A DNA stretch of 15,189 nt. Source: a virus. Its lineage: Duplodnaviria; Heunggongvirae; Uroviricota; Caudoviricetes. Shown one piece after another: positions 2,773-14,013 of the stretch (positions are counted from its first letter, which is position 1; the number at the start of each line of letters is the position of its first letter). The DNA lies in IMG/VR virus record IMGVR_UViG_2651869755_000008. One strand, 5' to 3'. The notes beneath the pieces were generated by a model. That model saw only the letters and a list, made by a program, of their open reading frames with translations, did no database searches and was not told the DNA's origin. Position numbers and translations under genes: made by a program.

Positions 2773-5365
2773 TTGCATATTCCTTAGCCCAGCGGGGCAG
2801 TGATAATGTCTTAATAGCTGGCCATTCATCGGTATTCAGGCAGTCAGACAGGGTTCGCAGATTGCGGTGATATTCCTGTTGACCTGCCAGTTTTGCTTCT
2901 TCGCCCATCATGAAAATTTCAACCGGATAACGTCCGCATTCAATAGTTGTGCTGGCAACCAGAAAAACGAAAGTTGGCTGCACTCCAAACTGTGCTTCAT
3001 AACCGTCACTGTAGAATGCATCCTGAACGTGATAGCGGTAGTCGTAATAAGCGGTTTTGAATCGTTGAATATCCGCCGTAGTTTTCACGTCCATGATCCA
3101 GTGAAATTCAGGGATAATTTTGTCCGGACGGCACCGACACAAAATTCCTGTTTCAGGATCTTCCCAGTAAATTGATGATTCAGCGTGTCCGGCGCTTTCA
3201 ACAAGCCATTGCCCCAGCGGCAAAGCCATAACGCTTTGATACATGAGTTCAATTTTCCGGCCTTCTTCCGCAGTGATAACCGTTTTTCCTGTGCTTGCGC
3301 ATTCCATCAGAAACGCTTTCTCTTCTTCTTTTCCGGCGTTTGTACGGCGGTTAAATTCAGGTGCTACGATAAAGCGGTTACTGAATTCTTCCGGTTCAAG
3401 TACCCGGCAGTGGAAAGCGGTTCCTAAATCGAGCGTTTTTGTCTTTGTGGTGTCCACGGGGGCATTTTTACGCCACAAATATAGTGCCGGAGTATCAGCA
3501 ATGTCATCGAGCTGAGACTTACTGACACCGGGACCCGCGTGGTAATTCTCATTCGAAATTCCGTAATAAATACCTGGCTCTATGTCTTCTACGATTACGG
3601 GATCTGCGACTTCGCCAGTTTCATCACTGCAATCGCGATGCGGATCGCTGCCAGCATTCTCATTGTGCGGATGTTCAGCGCCTTCCATTTCCTCCGGATC
3701 ATTTTCCTTAGCTTCAACCTGACTCTCTTCATCGAATGTTTCCTGGTATGTTGCGTCGCCCATCACCGCACCACAGTCAGGGCAGTTATCCCCGCCAGTC
3801 TGGCCGCAGGCATTGCAGGCTATTTCCGGTTCCTGTTGCACTACTGGCTCAGGTTGATTCATATCCGGGCTGGTTTTTTCCGTTTCTGGCTGGTTCTGGT
3901 ACACACAATCGCGAGTCTGGATCCCCTTTACCCATTTCGGATCGTTCGGGTCGCTAATTCCGTCAACAAATTCACCACGTGATGCAGCAAGCAATTTATC
4001 GGCATCGACAGGATTTTTTGATGGAATGTTTTTCCGGGCTTCATGGAGTTCTGCCCGCAGTTCCTGATATTTCGCATCAACAGAATTTACCTGTGACTGA
4101 GCATCCAGCGGCTGCGTGTCCTGATGATGTTCAGTTGCGTCCGGTTCCATTGTTTCAGCCTCTCCCTGTTCAACTGCCGTTGTTCCAGATGGTTGCGGTT
4201 TTTCTTCATCATCCTGTTTTCCTTCTTCTGTTACTCGCTGCGGCATCGGGGCAGAGGAGCGACCGCAGGCAATATCCACGATTTCCGGATCAGGGTTGGC
4301 ATGATCGGTTTCAGTCAGTACTTTGTTCAGATATTCAGTGACGTGCGCGGGGATGACCTCGATCCCAATTGGTGCTTCTTTTACGGACGCAACCACGATG
4401 GCGCGGGAATAATCCAGCCCGCCAGGCATGGTGATGAATTTGTCGCGGAAAACAGAAAAGGGCGGTTTATTTTCAGCGATAATTTCCTCAATGCGTTTAG
4501 CGTGTGCCGGATGAAGGTTATAGATGTCCAGATCCATTGAACGGGCCAGTACGCCAGTGGCTACGTCGCGCGCCAGTGACGTCAGATCGTGTACGAAACC
4601 TTCGCCGCGATCGGTGAGGTTTCCGCCGCCAGCATTAGCACCGGAAGCCGTGCGAGTGATGTGTGAAACACGATTACCCTTCATCCACTCTTTTGTCAGC
4701 AGTCCTCGATCGGTGTAGTCAGCGTTCAGGTATGCTTCGAAAAAAGCAGTTATCAGTCCCAGGTTTGAATTACCAGGATTAGGGAAAACTTTGTCAGTGT
4801 CACGAACCAGTTTGTGGAGTTCGCGAATTTCCAGCGGGTCGAGCAGGCTGGTTTTGTGGGAAACAGCCAGAGCAGTAACAGCCGGTAGTTCTTCAGCCCG
4901 AGCAATGTGTAATGCCTGGAGTCCGTCGCGTGAAACGTGCGTTACCGGTTTTTCGCTGCCGTGTTGAGCAAGCCAACGAATGGGCAGTTCCTGGCCAGAA
5001 ATTGGGAGTAGCATATTCTCCTCAATCTCAGTCATGTCTTCGCCGTTGACGTTGGTATTGCCTTGATAGTGAGCGTTGTCTGGTGCTGCTCCCGGTTTTA
5101 GTTCCCATGTCATGGAGTCTTTGCTGAGTTGATAGCGTTCACTCCAGGTAAAATCGATCTCACCTTCAGCGGGCAGGTCATTAACGACAGGAAAATTCGT
5201 GGCAACAGCTTTAAAATAGCTGCTCAGTTTTTTACCTGACTTAACGATCAGGTAGTCCAGAGTGGCACAGGTCGATTCAAAATCGTTGCTTGCCCACAGG
5301 ACGACGTCAGGTTCACCGGATGATTTTTTCGCTTTCCGTAACAGGAAGAGTGGTTTTGTGCTCAT
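2765..5365 (-). CDS. recE: RecE exonuclease VIII, 866 aa
   Basis: The 866-aa ORF with a long acidic low-complexity middle region and a C-terminal nuclease domain is recognised as Rac RecE; the length matches my recollection. Immediately upstream of and overlapping recT. Confidence 0.95.
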
Positions 5366-5466
5366 TGTTTTTTAACCTCAACTCAGATTAAAATTCGTTT
5401 TGTTCAGTGAATGATCTTGCCGGATACACACTGTTCATAGCCTGCGCCATACGCAGGCTATTTCTT

Positions 5467-6649: not shown

Positions 6650-7138
6650 ATGTTGGATGTATTTACTCCATTGTTGAAACTTTTTGCTAACGAGCCACTC
6701 GAAAGACTTATGTATACGATTATCATTTTTGGTCTCACTCTCTGGCTGATACCGAAAGAGTTTACTGTCGCATTCAATGCTTATACTGAAATACCTTGGC
6801 TCTTTCAGATTATCGTTTTTGCCTTTTCTTTCGTGGTCGCCATTTCCTTCTCAAGATTGCGAGCACATATTCAAAAGCATTATTCATTACTACCAGAGCA
6901 ACGAGTATTGCTTCGTTTATCTGAGAAAGAAATCGCTGTATTTAAAGATTTCCTTAAAACAGGAAATCTTATTATCACTTCTCCTTGCCGTAACCCGGTT
7001 ATGAAAAAATTAGAACGGAAGGGCATCATTCAACATCAGAGTGATAGCGCAAACTGTTCTTATTATCTCGTCACCGAAAAATACTCCCATTTTATGAAAT
7101 TATTCTGGAACAGCAGGAGTAGACGTTTTAATCGTTAG
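6650..7138 (+). CDS. sieB: SieB superinfection exclusion protein, 162 aa, membrane
   Basis: Internal ATG at 6650; product MLDVFTPLLKLFANEPLERLMYTIIIFGLTLWLIPKEF... has two hydrophobic segments and is recognised as Rac SieB. The 203-aa ORF-track version begins at an upstream start inside the untranslated region. Confidence 0.85.
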   Translation: MLDVFTPLLKLFANEPLERLMYTIIIFGLTLWLIPKEFTVAFNAYTEIPWLFQIIVFAFSFVVAISFSRLRAHIQKHYSLLPEQRVLLRLSEKEIAVFKDFLKTGNLIITSPCRNPVMKKLERKGIIQHQSDSANCSYYLVTEKYSHFMKLFWNSRSRRFNR

Positions 7139-7290
7139 CTTACTGTGTGCTTCTCCAACCATCGGCGCGCACCAGTTTCGGTTTTAAATGTTTTGCTTTT
7201 GGTATACGTCATGGCAGTGAACGTTCCATCCTGGTTGGGGAACACGCCGCACACCAGGGATTCGTTGTTGCCGAGGTCGATTTTTTGCAT
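7135..7290 (-). CDS. ydaF: YdaF small protein, 51 aa
   Basis: Hand-translated MQKIDLGNNESLVCGVFPNQDGTFTAMTYTKSKTFKTETGARRWLEKHTVS*. Length and position (between sieB and racR, minus strand) match Rac ydaF. Its 3' end overlaps the sieB stop by 4 nt, convergently. Confidence 0.7.
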   Translation of the reverse strand: MQKIDLGNNESLVCGVFPNQDGTFTAMTYTKSKTFKTETGARRWLEKHTVS

Positions 7291-7313
7291 TTTGCGAATC
7301 TCACATCTTGTTG

Positions 7314-7436
7314 CTACGTATAGCGACTTCTGCCTGCCAGAGATCCTAGTCGTTGCTGCGTAAAGCCTGCACAGCCTGGTTGTAAGTGATACCGCAACAA
7401 TCCATCAAATACTGAACTACTTCGTAATGCACCATC
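7314..7436 (-). CDS. ydaG: YdaG-like small protein, 40 aa
   Basis: Hand-translated MVALRSSSVFDGLLRYHLQPGCAGFTQQRLGSLAGRSRYT* with a strong SD (AAGGGGAG) 5-6 nt upstream. Position matches Rac ydaG, but the length (40 versus a recalled 44 aa) and identity are not verified. Confidence 0.45.
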   Translation of the reverse strand, partial: DGALRSSSVFDGLLRYHLQPGCAGFTQQRLGSLAGRSRYT

Positions 7437-7603
7437 TTATCTCTCCCCTTAACGCCGGGTGGCGGAACTAACTGCTGCACTGCAAAATTTGAATCCCGCC
7501 GTCATGTTCATACGCCTCGGGCTGGCTACTTAACCCCTGACCACTGCCTGGTAACTCGAAGTATTGCCCGGCGTTCTGTGGGGCGGGGTGGGTTGGTAGG
7601 TAT

Positions 7604-7648
7604 ATAATGTACTTTATGTTCATCATTGTAAAGTACTTTAAGTACATT
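7604..7648 (-). promoter_or_regulatory. Candidate leftward promoter flanked by ATGTACTT-type palindromic motifs
   Basis: On the minus strand, TTTACA (plus 7627..7632), a 17-nt spacer, then CATTAT (plus 7604..7609). The site is overlapped by ATGTACTT (7607..7614), the palindrome AAGTACTT (7633..7640) and AAGTACAT (7641..7648). Called by eye only. Confidence 0.3.
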
Positions 7649-7722
7649 TTATGTATAAAAAAATGAGACGGGATAAAGTGAAGCACAAACCCGGAGGGGG
7701 ACGCTACCGGATTTATGCTGGT

Positions 7723-8142
7723 TTAAGAGGCTTTTTGTTTTTTCTTTCGTGCTAACTCTTCGTAAATTGCATTGTACTTCTGTTTTTTCTCCTCAAGAGT
7801 TTTTAAAAGTTCATCTGTCTCACTGTCAGGGAGCTCGTCCAGAAGGTCAATGATGATTTTTTGTCTTGGATTTAACTCCTGATAGAAACGTATCTGTCCA
7901 CTTTCTTCTGTATCCTCTCCCAAAAGATAGGTTGGTGTTGTTCCAATGAGTGTTGCTAATTCCCTTAATTTCTCTCGGCGAGGAATTGTTTCACCATTAA
8001 ACCATTTGCTAACCGCTTTTGGTGTTAATTTCATTCGACGGGCAATTTCTGCCTGCCTTCCATGTTGTTCATAACCAGCGTTTTCACAGGCTAGCGCAAG
8101 CCTACTGGCGAACTCTTTACGCGCTTTATCTTCATGAACCAT
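7723..8142 (-). CDS. racR: RacR-like prophage repressor with an XRE-family HTH, 139 aa
   Basis: N-terminal HTH-like segment (QAEIARRMKLTPKAVSKWFNGETIPRREKLRELATLIG), no LexA-like peptidase domain, divergent from ydaS-ydaT as in Rac. No in-frame ATG upstream before a stop. Confidence 0.8.
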   Translation of the reverse strand: MVHEDKARKEFASRLALACENAGYEQHGRQAEIARRMKLTPKAVSKWFNGETIPRREKLRELATLIGTTPTYLLGEDTEESGQIRFYQELNPRQKIIIDLLDELPDSETDELLKTLEEKKQKYNAIYEELARKKKQKAS

Positions 8143-8221
8143 AAGTTCAATGATATTCGCTCTTGAATGTACTGTCAGTTCTGTTATAGCATGTACTCAA
8201 AGTTCACATTGTGAGGATGAT
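8143..8221. promoter_or_regulatory. Divergent racR / ydaS promoter-operator region
   Basis: 79-bp intergenic region with repeated motifs: AAGTTCA at 8143..8149 and 8200..8206, ATGTACT at 8167..8173 and 8191..8197. The placement mirrors a lambda OR-type switch region. Confidence 0.55.
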
Positions 8222-8476
8222 ATGAACCAGAAAACACTTGAAGATGTAATCAAAACTGTTCGCGTTTCTGTTGTGGCCGACGTTTGTGGTGTCAGCCAAA
8301 GAGCAATCTACAAATGGATGGATAACGGAAAATTGCCTCGCACAGAATATACCGGCGAAACAAATTACGCTGAAAAAATCGCTCATGCATCAAACGGATT
8401 ATTTTCTGCCGATGCAATTTTAACTATTGGCAGAAATAAAACTACTACGAAAAAGCTGATGGGAGTTGATTCATGA
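8222..8476 (+). CDS. ydaS: YdaS-like Cro/HTH protein, 84 aa
   Basis: ATG at 8222 with GAGG 6 nt upstream; HTH-like VADVCGVSQRAIYKWMDNGKLP. Its stop overlaps the ydaT start (ATGA). The ORF-track N-terminal 24 codons have no SD. Confidence 0.75.
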   Translation: MNQKTLEDVIKTVRVSVVADVCGVSQRAIYKWMDNGKLPRTEYTGETNYAEKIAHASNGLFSADAILTIGRNKTTTKKLMGVDS

Positions 8477-8895
8477 AAATCAAGCATGAGCACATCGAAT
8501 CAGTGTTGTTAGCCCTGGCAGCCGAAAAAGGGCAGGCGTGGGTCGCTAACGCAATTACTGAAGAATATCTGCGCCAGGGGGGCGGCGAATTGCCCCTGGT
8601 ACCAGGCAAGGACTGGAACAATCAGCAGAATATCTATCATCGTTGGTTGAAAGGTGAAACGAATGCGCAAAGGGAAAAAATTCAGAAACTGATCCCTGCG
8701 GTTCTGGCAATTCTTCCTCGCGAGCTGCGTCACCGACTCTGCATCTTCGATACCCTGGAACGCCGTGCATTACTGGCGGCACAGGATGCACTGAGTACGG
8801 CAATTGATGCGCATGATGATGCAGTCCAGGCCGTTTACCGTAAAGCACATTTCAGCGGCGGCGGTTCTCCTGGCGATTCTGTCGTAGTGCATTGA
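8473..8895 (+). CDS. ydaT: YdaT, 140 aa, co-transcribed partner of YdaS
   Basis: The 140-aa product MKIKHEHIESVLLALAAEKGQAWVANAITEEYLRQ... matches my recollection of Rac YdaT in length and position; translationally coupled to ydaS. Confidence 0.8.
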   Translation: MKIKHEHIESVLLALAAEKGQAWVANAITEEYLRQGGGELPLVPGKDWNNQQNIYHRWLKGETNAQREKIQKLIPAVLAILPRELRHRLCIFDTLERRALLAAQDALSTAIDAHDDAVQAVYRKAHFSGGGSPGDSVVVH

Positions 8896-11744: not shown

Positions 11745-12548
11745 ATGAAACCAGAATACTTAAGGAAAATAGAATCATTGCAACGTGAGGTTGATGATTT
11801 CCATCCAGTGCTAAGAGCGCTTCTACCACGTTTGCCGACTGTTACACATGTTGAATATAAGCAAGGACCATCAGAAAAAGGTGCTGATTTTGTCATAATT
11901 AAACGAGATGAGGCATTAGATGAGGAAATATATATTGGGGTTATTTGTAAGGTTGGAAAGATAATTCAGTCAAATAGTGAGGTCGAACGACAAATAGAAG
12001 AGTGTCAATTATACCCACGCTTTATTTCTTCTGGCTCTAAGAACATACATTTGAATGAAATTTGGGTTGTTACTAATTCATCAATCTCAAATAATGCTCA
12101 AGAAAAAATCTACTTAAAATTCAAATCTACAAATATAAAGTTTATAGAAGGTGAGAAAATATGTTCTTTAATCAGTAAATATTACCCAGAGTTTTGGGAT
12201 TTCGAATCCATTAATTATGAGCAATACTTAACAGATACATTGCAAACCATAAGTGATACTCCTGAAAGTTCTTTTTTTGGTAGTGTTGGCATAAATAACC
12301 TTATTGATAGATATGTAAGCAAGGAAGATCATAAAAAACGCAGGCACAGGCCGTTAAAACTGTATAGTGTTGTGAGAGCCGAGAGATTTATTTTTTTAGA
12401 GGGAACTGTTGGCTCCGGGAAAAGTACTTTGCTGAAACAGCTAATTAAAAAAATAAAAGAAGAATATTCTTACGAAAAAGACTACATCCTTCCAGTATTT
12501 TGCCAATACAAGGATGTTCTAGAAAAAAACTCAATATTGAAAATATAA
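11745..12548 (+). CDS. N-terminal part of a frameshifted Mrr-like nuclease / NACHT NTPase gene (Mrr-like domain plus Walker A)
   Basis: AAGGT SD. N-terminal ~150 aa resemble the Mrr-cat restriction-endonuclease fold (VLRALLPRL...KGADFVII...SEVERQIEEC...NEIWVVTNSSISNNAQEKIY...NIKFIEGEKICSLI). Walker A GTVGSGKST lies near the C-terminus. The frame ends 6 codons after an A7 run. Confidence 0.75.
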   Translation: MKPEYLRKIESLQREVDDFHPVLRALLPRLPTVTHVEYKQGPSEKGADFVIIKRDEALDEEIYIGVICKVGKIIQSNSEVERQIEECQLYPRFISSGSKNIHLNEIWVVTNSSISNNAQEKIYLKFKSTNIKFIEGEKICSLISKYYPEFWDFESINYEQYLTDTLQTISDTPESSFFGSVGINNLIDRYVSKEDHKKRRHRPLKLYSVVRAERFIFLEGTVGSGKSTLLKQLIKKIKEEYSYEKDYILPVFCQYKDVLEKNSILKI

Positions 12549-14002
12549 TACAAAGTGTATTAAGTAAGTACAAAATACAACATGATGGGAATATTTTATT
12601 AATTGTTGATTCGGTGGATGAAGTAAAGGAATCACTTGAGGAAAGGCAAAACAACTTCAGGGACATTGTAGAGAAAGTATCCAGGAGTGATAAAGTTCGA
12701 TTACTAGTTGCTTCAAGAATTATGGACTCTCTTCAGGACTATGAAGTTATCGATCAGATGTTTGCAAGATACTCGATAATACCACTTAGCACAGGTCAAA
12801 TAATCGACTTTGTAGATAAAATCTGCAATGACATTAAAATAACAAACAAGCTTAAGAATGGTATAGAAAAAACACCACTATTTAAATTCATTCCCAGGAC
12901 TCCAGTGAGTGCTATTCTTCTAGCAAGAATACTCTCTGATGAGATTAAAGAATTACCATCTACAATGACAGAACTATACTCAAAATACAGTGAGATAGTA
13001 TTGGGACGATGGGATACATCTAAGGGATTATTATCGCAAACAGAATATGATGTAATAAGTAATATATTAGTAGAAATTGCGATGTTTATGATGGATAACT
13101 CTCTAAACTGCATATCAATTTCTGAAGTGCAGGACATGTTTTTAAATTATTTGGCCAAAAGAAACTTGAATGTTGATGAGGACAAACTTTTCAAAAGACT
13201 AATTTATCGCAGTGAAGTAACAACAGTTAATGTTAGAACTAATACGTTCTCATTTCTACACAGATCATTCATGGAGTATTTTTACGCTGAAGGACTTAGG
13301 AAGCGTGGCTTAATAGACATAAATGATAATATTTATGATATTTATTGGGCAAATAGTTATTTCTTCTATTTTGGTTTATTAAGAGACAATGAATATCTTA
13401 TTGATAAAATTAATGAACTTAAACCTAGTAACGATAAAACAAGATTTTTAAGGTTATTTTATAACGGTTCTTTTTATTTGGCTTCATATCTAACTCCGTA
13501 TAAAAAAATAGCAAGGGGAGTCCTTTTATCATATATAGATGCAGGTAAATTATATGTTGATATTCTCCATGGAAATACCGACATCCCGCTGAAGGAGTTT
13601 TCACCAGTAGCTCTTCTTTGTATTTTTACAAAGTGTTTAAGTAACAATTACGCATATGATTTTTTCAAATCTGCCTTGGAAGACTTGTCAGTTCAAATTG
13701 AACAATATGAGGAAATTGGGGAACATATTGATTATGCACGTTTCTTCATAGCATCAACACTGAATGAGCTCGGGGATAAATCCGCATTTGATAGCTTAGT
13801 GGAAAAAAATAAATTAGGTGTTTTGATTAATTTAGGGATAACTCACGTTACAGACGACTCAGGGCTACTAAGTACTACGGTTGATAAGTACCTGAAAAAA
13901 TTCAATAAAAAAGTACGAAGTAACCATGATATGTCTAATTATATATCTAAGTTATATGAGGAATCTACTGGTTCCTTACGTACAAACCTACAAATTCAAT
14001 AA
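12500..14002 (+). CDS. C-terminal part of the same gene (NACHT Walker B to C-terminal helical domain); frame differs from 11745..12548
   Basis: NACHT-type Walker B LLIVDSVDE, sensor-1-like RLLVASR, TPLF / PRTPVSAILLARIL, and FSFLHRSFMEYFYAEG matching the conserved NACHT motif seen in NLRs. The only start before these motifs is the TTG at 12500 with no SD, so independent translation is unlikely. Confidence 0.75.
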   Translation: MPIQGCSRKKLNIENIIQSVLSKYKIQHDGNILLIVDSVDEVKESLEERQNNFRDIVEKVSRSDKVRLLVASRIMDSLQDYEVIDQMFARYSIIPLSTGQIIDFVDKICNDIKITNKLKNGIEKTPLFKFIPRTPVSAILLARILSDEIKELPSTMTELYSKYSEIVLGRWDTSKGLLSQTEYDVISNILVEIAMFMMDNSLNCISISEVQDMFLNYLAKRNLNVDEDKLFKRLIYRSEVTTVNVRTNTFSFLHRSFMEYFYAEGLRKRGLIDINDNIYDIYWANSYFFYFGLLRDNEYLIDKINELKPSNDKTRFLRLFYNGSFYLASYLTPYKKIARGVLLSYIDAGKLYVDILHGNTDIPLKEFSPVALLCIFTKCLSNNYAYDFFKSALEDLSVQIEQYEEIGEHIDYARFFIASTLNELGDKSAFDSLVEKNKLGVLINLGITHVTDDSGLLSTTVDKYLKKFNKKVRSNHDMSNYISKLYEESTGSLRTNLQIQ

Positions 14003-14013
14003 TAAATAGATTG

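Follow-up and report, generated by a model that had tools for sequence, protein, structure and literature searches.

The DNA analysed here, which I call the window (15,189 bp), matches at 100% identity a prophage that E. coli LC-1302-2020 carries at its ttcA locus. Its genes follow the order intR, xisR, ralR, recT, recE, racC, ydaE, kilR, sieB, ydaF, two HTH genes and ydaT. The leftward operon begins with ydaG (7301-7435, minus strand) and continues with ydaF (7135-7290, minus strand, DUF1391). Further to the right lie a cluster of palindromic motifs at 7604-7647, the gene of an immunity repressor (7723-8142, minus strand) and the divergent gene of a Cro-like protein (8222-8476, plus strand). 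Between racC and recE there is a perfect palindrome (5437-5461, ATAGCCTGCG-CCATA-CGCAGGCTAT) with a 10-bp stem, which is possibly a bidirectional terminator that would limit read-through from the leftward promoter into recET. In the right arm, RefSeq annotates a NACHT-domain protein (approximately 11745-14003, plus strand) adjoining a truncated DUF977 gene, and this may be defence-type cargo.

The immunity cassette

The repressor (WP_000233319.1) has 139 aa, with a Pfam HTH_3 domain in its N-terminal part, a helical C-terminal part and no Pfam match to Peptidase_S24. Its AlphaFold model (mean pLDDT 83) is all helical, an XRE-type HTH being followed by three helices, and a fold search of this model against the PDB gave matches to the HTH domain only (best E = 3e-3) and no structural relative for the helical C-terminal part. 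Residues 4-102 are 46% identical to HK022 CI over 99 residues (E = 9e-32), and the recognition helices, PKAVSKWF in the window repressor and PKAISKWF in HK022 CI, differ by one conservative change. In a translated search of the phage collection, residues 1-73 show about 51% identity to the CI of 933W/phi24B.

The relatives that share this N-terminal domain come in a long form of 235-240 aa and a short form of 138-139 aa. In the alignment the long relatives carry SAGPG and S24, whereas the window repressor stops after 139 residues and has a tail of another, helical kind, so that it lacks both S24 and the Ala-Gly cleavage site. Both combinations, the HK022-like DNA-binding domain joined to S24 or to a helical tail, are represented among proteins P0012, P0015, P0021 and P0034. 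The swap is probably a case of domain shuffling that changes the route by which the repressor is inactivated. As the 139-aa protein is without S24, RecA-mediated cleavage is not expected and, since this domain also serves cooperativity and looping in CI-type repressors, both of these are assumptions where the window repressor is concerned. The Cro-like protein (84 aa) is 62% identical to HK022 Cro (E = 1e-34) and 47% identical to 933W-type Cro.

DNA homology with K-12 ends at approximately 7593-7598 and resumes at the start of ydaT, and the roughly 870 bp in between form a different cassette. Judged by this homology, the window prophage is a Rac backbone at ttcA with a non-K-12 immunity cassette (approximately 7598-8465). 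The left-hand break coincides with the predicted +1 of the leftward promoter, so the operators would travel with the repressor gene. At the right-hand edge of the cassette a perfect YdaT box, TTGATT-CATGAA-AATCAA (8466-8483), spans the ydaT start codon; it has the CP-933P-type consensus, while K-12 has ATGATT. A 72-aa open reading frame (7468-7686, minus strand) that spans the operator cluster was rejected as a gene because both the break in K-12 homology and the predicted start of the leftward transcript fall inside it.

Operators and putative promoters

The cluster at 7604-7647 contains two 17-bp inverted repeats, 24 bp apart from centre to centre. The first, OL1 (7607-7623, ATGTAC-TTTAT-GTTCAT), has no mismatch to ATGWAC-N5-GTWCAT, and neither has its inner 15-mer (7608-7622). 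The second, OL2 (7631-7647, AAGTAC-TTTAA-GTACAT), has one mismatch, as has its 15-mer (7632-7646). With a weight matrix made only from the five annotated HK022 operators, and from no site of the window, OL1 scores 16.3 bits and OL2 17.5 bits. No OL3 is apparent, as the matrix finds no further site of at least 3 bits within 7560-7730; the position 53 bp from OL2, where OL3 would be, scores 10.2 bits in HK022 and 15.6 bits in Klebsiella phage 2b.

A candidate promoter on the minus strand, PL, overlaps these repeats. Its -35 hexamer TTTACA (7632-7627) is abutted and overlapped by OL2, and its -10 hexamer CATTAT (7609-7604), which agrees with the consensus at only four of six positions, is overlapped by OL1, which also covers the 17-bp spacer. 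From the geometry of the hexamers, transcription is predicted to start at about 7597. The preliminary description had placed a leftward promoter over these motifs, and a consensus scan does find TTTACA-17-CATTAT at 7632..7604. The scan returns 2 promoter-like sites against 1.9 in shuffles, and as the counts of the generic terminator and promoter scans equal those of shuffles they carry no weight alone; the call of PL is therefore taken from homology and not from the scan.

This homology is with phage HK022. With 7590-7730 as a blastn query, the phage collection yields the oL/pL features of HK022 and O276, and positions 7603-7661 are 82% identical (E = 4e-7) to the part of HK022 annotated as 'oL repressor binding site (x2), promoter (x2)'. 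The HK022 immunity record X16093 (Oberto et al. 1989) lists two oL sites, TGTACTATTGGTACT and TGAACTTTAAGTACA, a pL with -35 TTTACA and -10 CATCAT, and three oR sites. In the alignment OL1 pairs with the HK022 oL site at 1286-1300 and OL2 with that at 1262-1276 (coordinates of L005), and the minus strand reads CATAAAATGTACTTAAAGTACTTTACAATGATGAACATAAAGTACATTATATACC in the window and CATAAAATGTACTATTGGTACTTTACATTAATGAACTTTAAGTACATCATAAGCC in HK022. Both operators, TTTACA and CATYAT stand in identical register in the window and in annotated HK022, and the pL hexamers of O276 do likewise. This base-for-base alignment with the HK022 oL sites and the pL -35 and -10 bears out the earlier suggestion of an OL-like operator over a leftward early promoter. 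I consider it highly likely, on these comparisons, that 7604-7647 represents OL1-OL2 and PL of an HK022-family immunity module that replaces racR-ydaS in a Rac-type prophage.

As had been anticipated, operators of the same type recur in the divergent region, ahead of the repressor gene. They begin at 8134, 8167 and 8191. OR3 (8134-8150, ATGAAC-CATAA-GTTCAA, 19.7 bits) lies over the repressor start codon, and its 15-bp core TGAACTTATGGTTCA is identical to OR3 and also to OR1 of HK022. OR2 (8167-8183, ATGTAC-TGTCA-GTTCTG, 14.6 bits) lies at a spacing of 33 bp to OR3 and of 24 bp to OR1 (8191-8207, ATGTAC-TCAAA-GTTCAC, 16.3 bits), which covers the -10 and the start of the rightward promoter. The oR sites of HK022, at 430, 454 and 487 of L005, have the same 24- and 33-bp spacings. 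A candidate PR, TTGAAT-16-TATAGC (8163-8190, plus strand), was positioned from the annotated pR hexamers of HK022, with which it aligns, and is below the threshold of the consensus scan. That scan does yield a candidate maintenance promoter for the repressor, CTGACA-17-TATCAT (8178..8150, minus strand, 10 of 12 matches), which would start the message at or beside the ATG, i.e. as a leaderless mRNA. A leaderless repressor transcript has been documented for K-12 racR (PMC9638921), and the one predicted here resembles reports for both lambda cI and K-12 racR.

Conservation among relatives

The operators were compared in four E. coli variants, phages 673R7 and Tritos, Salmonella phage S9-5, Klebsiella phage 2b and Salmonella prophages. 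In eight aligned relatives the OL half-sites are invariant and the N5 centres variable, and the PL -35 TTTACA is unchanged in all eight. The variants of OL1 read TGTAC-TTTAT/TTTGT/TTTGC-GTTCA and those of OL2 AGTAC-TTTAA/ATTTA/TTTTA-GTACA, so changes are confined to the central N5 and to the linker between the operators, and neither the half-sites nor TTTACA are ever altered. Phage S9-5, Klebsiella phage 2b and the Salmonella prophages all have three OR sites and, around TTTACA, an OL pair spaced by 24 bp, and the short repressors of the Salmonella prophages are 62-65% identical to that of the window. The layout also persists when the repressor gene and OL are separated by HigB/HigA or by other genes, which indicates that the operator pair travels with the DNA-binding domain, whatever intervenes. 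The HigB/HigA-like toxin-antitoxin pair was observed between the short repressor gene and OL in three Salmonella prophages (L014, 3553-4220; L015 and L016, 3588-4255).

The leader and the leftward operon

The predicted PL transcript would begin with a 5' leader (7436-7598, minus strand), with a mosaic junction at the predicted +1. Some 155 nt of it (7444-7598), very rich in C at the 5' end, are found at 85-99% identity in prophages whose immunity cassettes, of at least four kinds, are unrelated to one another. The four cassettes compared were the HK022-like one, that of K-12 RacR, a CP-933P-like one (HTH repressor, RelB and ParE) and one with a LexA-family CI; each has its own promoter-proximal sequence, and all converge on the common leader, CCACCCACCCCGCCCCACAGAACGCC..., a few bases past the -10. 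Of 5426 complete E. coli genomes, 3795 match at least part of a query of 7300-8300.

A search of 7100-8300 against Rfam, on both strands and with E up to 1, returned nothing; the consensus fold of seven copies of the leader shows no compensatory pairs, and the fold of the single sequence is ordinary (z = -1.8). The leader is possibly a Rho-loading site or some other cis element. A put-like antiterminator was also considered and rejected, as a covariance model of HK022 putL and putR, built from these two sequences only, finds the copies in HK022, O276 and Salmonella S9-5 but gives no match in the window or in the Rac/Qin-type loci (E up to 10). The copy in Salmonella phage S9-5 (L007, 919-987, 68.7 bits) is an unannotated putL homologue just downstream of an HK022-type OL/PL.

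Downstream of the leader, ydaG has an in-frame TAG where K-12 has TGG (Trp). On this evidence ydaG is a pseudogene in the window strain, where RefSeq leaves it unannotated, and the earlier naming of ydaG as the first gene driven is not supported.

These features bring up the question whether the operators, although genuine and of HK022 type, are a relic, with PL inactive or its transcript terminated in the leader, and with kilR, racC and recET no longer controlled. Rac-type prophages are often defective, ydaG is broken, the PL -10 is weak and sieB is convergent to the leftward operon. Moreover, the C-rich 5' end of the leader would suit Rho loading, and in K-12 the expression of Rac kil is known to be silenced in a Rho-dependent manner (PMC4150792). 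However, the phage isolates vB_EcoS-673R7, 666R9 and 613R10, 99.3% identical to the window over 7590-7730, and Tritos (90%) keep the PL hexamers and the OL sites intact, and of 5426 complete E. coli genomes, 1042 contain the cassette, covering at least 80% of 7300-8300, in Rac-like as well as Qin/DicB-like contexts, with the half-sites conserved in those copies examined. In K-12, silencing of racR de-represses the leftward Rac genes, and upon loss of the repressor ydaG, ydaF, kilR, ydaE, racC and further leftward genes rise 40- to 70-fold or more (PMC11014345; bioRxiv 10.64898/2026.09.06.749655), by which the leftward arm is under repressor control in the K-12 cassette. I therefore regard a mere relic as improbable, though PL in this defective prophage may no longer drive the distal genes.

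The repressor is not RacR

The preliminary description took the repressor for RacR and the rightward gene for ydaS. Both assignments would fit the gene order, which is that of K-12 Rac (ydaF, ydaG, repressor gene, divergent HTH gene, ydaT), and the position of the prophage at ttcA, as for K-12 Rac. However, the similarity of the repressor to K-12 RacR is restricted to a local HTH stretch of 33 residues, 12 of which are shared, and the K-12 DNA homology ends before the operators. The RacR operator has been footprinted as WTAGGC-N3-GCCTAW (PMC9638921); allowing up to two mismatches, I found no match to it in the window, against five in the 6.3-kb K-12 locus (L002), of which two lie where OL would be and the other three in the region of racR and ydaS. 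As to ydaS, the Cro-like protein has, besides its likeness to HK022 Cro, no Pfam match to YdaS_toxin. A K-12-type RacR binding the ATGTACT motifs on both sides of the gene is thus hardly credible, and the names racR and ydaS are, by these comparisons, positional guesses and not identities.

The two RacR-operator matches downstream of racR in the K-12-type Rac (L002, 3309-3323 and 3334-3348; ATAGGTAATGCCTAA and ATAGGCTATGCCTAA) are an observation in their own right. They overlap a near-consensus leftward promoter, TTGACA-17-TATAGT, and the segment (3306-3348) looks like an OL/PL of K-12 Rac's own. This parallel supports an arrangement in which a single repressor has operators to both sides of its gene and the motif is specific to the cassette. 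In the open-access literature searched I found neither a described RacR site upstream of ydaG nor a description of the immunity cassette of the window.

The operators are not chance words

The starting point for the locus had been the 7-mer ATGTACT, which occurs four times in the window (7607-7613, 8167-8173 and 8191-8197 on the plus strand and 7641-7647 on the minus strand). This count is weakly unusual, with 1.39 expected and at least four copies in 8 of 200 shuffles. Of the three words noted in the cluster, ATGTACTT was placed correctly at 7607-7614, whereas AAGTACTT and AAGTACAT, though present, are found at 7631-7638 and 7640-7647, i.e. 2 and 1 positions from where they had been put (7633-7640 and 7641-7648). 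More importantly, ATGTACT is a half-site and not the unit of recognition. The true units are the 15-17-bp inverted repeats (A)TGWAC-N5-GTWCA(T), so that the three words of the cluster amount to two operators, and the two copies that had been listed for the divergent region leave out a third site, over the repressor start codon (8134-8150).

One could argue that the cluster consists of functionless GTAC-containing words that arose by chance in AT-rich non-coding DNA. The 7-mer count is only mildly unusual, the region has a G+C content of 36%, and promoter-like hexamers are as frequent in shuffles. The inverted repeats, however, behave differently. With up to two mismatches, ATGWAC-N5-GTWCAT has exactly five matches in the window, all within the two regulatory regions. 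From start to start the OL sites lie 24 bp apart and the OR sites 33 and 24 bp; there are two pairs spaced by 24 bp, and not one such pair in any of 1000 shuffles. This pattern was derived from the window itself, and the test was repeated with the independent HK022 matrix, which ranks the same five sites highest (8134, 7631, 8191, 7607 and 8167, from 19.7 to 14.6 bits), the sixth-best site of the window scoring 10.3 bits. For sites of at least 14.6 bits, about 0.04 are expected per dinucleotide-shuffled window against the five found, and none was obtained in 2000 shuffles of each AT-rich non-coding segment alone. As the half-sites are, in addition, invariant in the relatives from E. coli, Salmonella and Klebsiella while the neighbouring bases vary, a chance origin is very unlikely, and the recurrence of these motifs downstream of the repressor gene, as first noticed, is real.

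Directly past the repressor stop codon and upstream of OL2 is a stem-loop (7682-7719, minus strand) with a moderately U-rich tail, the RNA fold of which has -21.2 kcal/mol against -9.55 +/- 2.2 in shuffles (z = -5.3). The simple terminator scan makes no call there, yet by its predicted fold it is plausibly terminator-like, and the immunity transcript would end there, short of OL2. That the palindromes of the cluster themselves act as RNA, forming the 3' end of the repressor transcript or a terminator for it, can practically be dismissed: they do lie, on the strand of the repressor gene, 76-116 nt past its stop codon, with AAAGTACTTT being self-complementary, but the strong hairpin is the one upstream at 7682-7719, 7640-7670 forms only a weak A-U stem, and fixed half-sites with free centres and 24-bp phasing are the pattern of DNA bound by a dimer and not of a stem.

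Discussion

The 7604-7647 region, read as OL1-OL2 and PL of an HK022-family module, has its closest parallel in HK022 itself. Both have 15-17-bp operators that follow TGWAC-N5-GTWCA, a pair of neighbouring OL sites spaced by 24 bp, an OL/PL downstream of the repressor gene that reads away from it, OR1-OR3 at 24 and 33 bp with OR3 over the repressor ATG, and a homologous repressor DNA-binding domain and Cro. They differ in that the CI of HK022 has 235 aa and a LexA-like S24 domain as opposed to 139 aa and a helical tail, in the OL3 that is present in HK022 and absent in the window, in the distance between OL and OR (about 700 bp as opposed to about 560 bp), and in what follows PL, which is putL and nun in HK022 and in the window a Rac/Qin-type leader, then ydaG and ydaF. 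A passage in PMC8053113, citing Carlson and Little 1993, describes HK022 CI as binding cooperatively at adjacent OL and OR operators and as looping between them.

Phages 933W and phi24B share related half-sites (GTAC / GTTC) and an OR3 over the cI start, but the flanks of their half-sites differ (CGTAC...), the CI of 933W is the long form that bears S24, and the operators of 933W fit the HK022-type 15-mer poorly, with one match at up to one mismatch (L004). From the work of Koudelka, 933W is likewise said to have two OL sites only. In lambda, too, the repressor gene is located between two sets of 17-bp operators, with one repressor silencing both arms and with adjacent sites 24 bp apart that overlap divergent early promoters. 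The sequence of the lambda operators is unrelated, however, and there are three OL sites instead of two; the lambda repressor has another oligomerisation domain, and the window is without the N/nutL system. With K-12 Rac, finally, the window shares the prophage backbone, the genomic position, a short repressor without S24 (PMC9638921, PMC5700373), the leaderless repressor transcript, which is predicted here, and an operator pair over the leftward promoter. The repressor, the Cro-like protein and the operator (WTAGGC-N3-GCCTAW in K-12) are unrelated, and the two cassettes are presumably alternative, hetero-immune modules.

The analogy with lambda cI, in which one repressor acts on two operator sets and both arms, had already been drawn for this locus; homology supports it, though not under the name of RacR. 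In the mechanism I propose, dimers of the 139-aa repressor would bind both 17-bp repeats downstream of its gene, probably cooperatively in view of the conserved 24-bp spacing. At OL1 the repressor would occlude the -10 of PL and at OL2 its -35, and with PL blocked, leftward transcription of the common leader, of ydaG/ydaF and onward to kilR, racC and recET would be silenced. The same repressor on OR1 and OR2 would shut PR and with it the cro-like gene, ydaT and the replication genes, and on OR3, over its own start codon, it would limit its own synthesis. The Cro-like protein would be expected at the same sites during lytic growth. Such a mechanism is textbook lambdoid regulation, and the cassette is an uncharacterised addition to the well-known HK022/lambdoid OL-PL class.

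For those who work with these prophages, the analysis corrects a labelling trap. Many 'Rac' prophages carry the HK022-family cassette and not racR/ydaS, and conclusions on K-12 RacR, such as its operator sequence and the logic of a repressor that holds down a toxin, are not transferable to them. For strains with this cassette, it locates the promoter and operators expected to gate kilR, racC and recET, which could be of use in studies of prophage-encoded toxicity, RecET expression and prophage induction in E. coli other than K-12. The cassette also appears as a clean case of modular exchange, swapped exactly from the PL +1 to the YdaT box, with the operators moving along with the repressor.

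The short repressor, which has an HK022-like DNA-binding domain and is present in roughly one in five complete E. coli genomes, may recognise, besides its own operators, those of HK022-immunity phages, though I put this forward tentatively and as the less probable outcome. Resident Rac- or Qin-type prophages would then confer an SOS-insensitive immunity against HK022-type phages, or interfere with their induction. In that case the repressor would need to be inactivated via an anti-repressor or some other route and not by RecA-mediated cleavage, and the conserved 24-bp phasing of the operators would imply a new cooperativity domain that is not S24.
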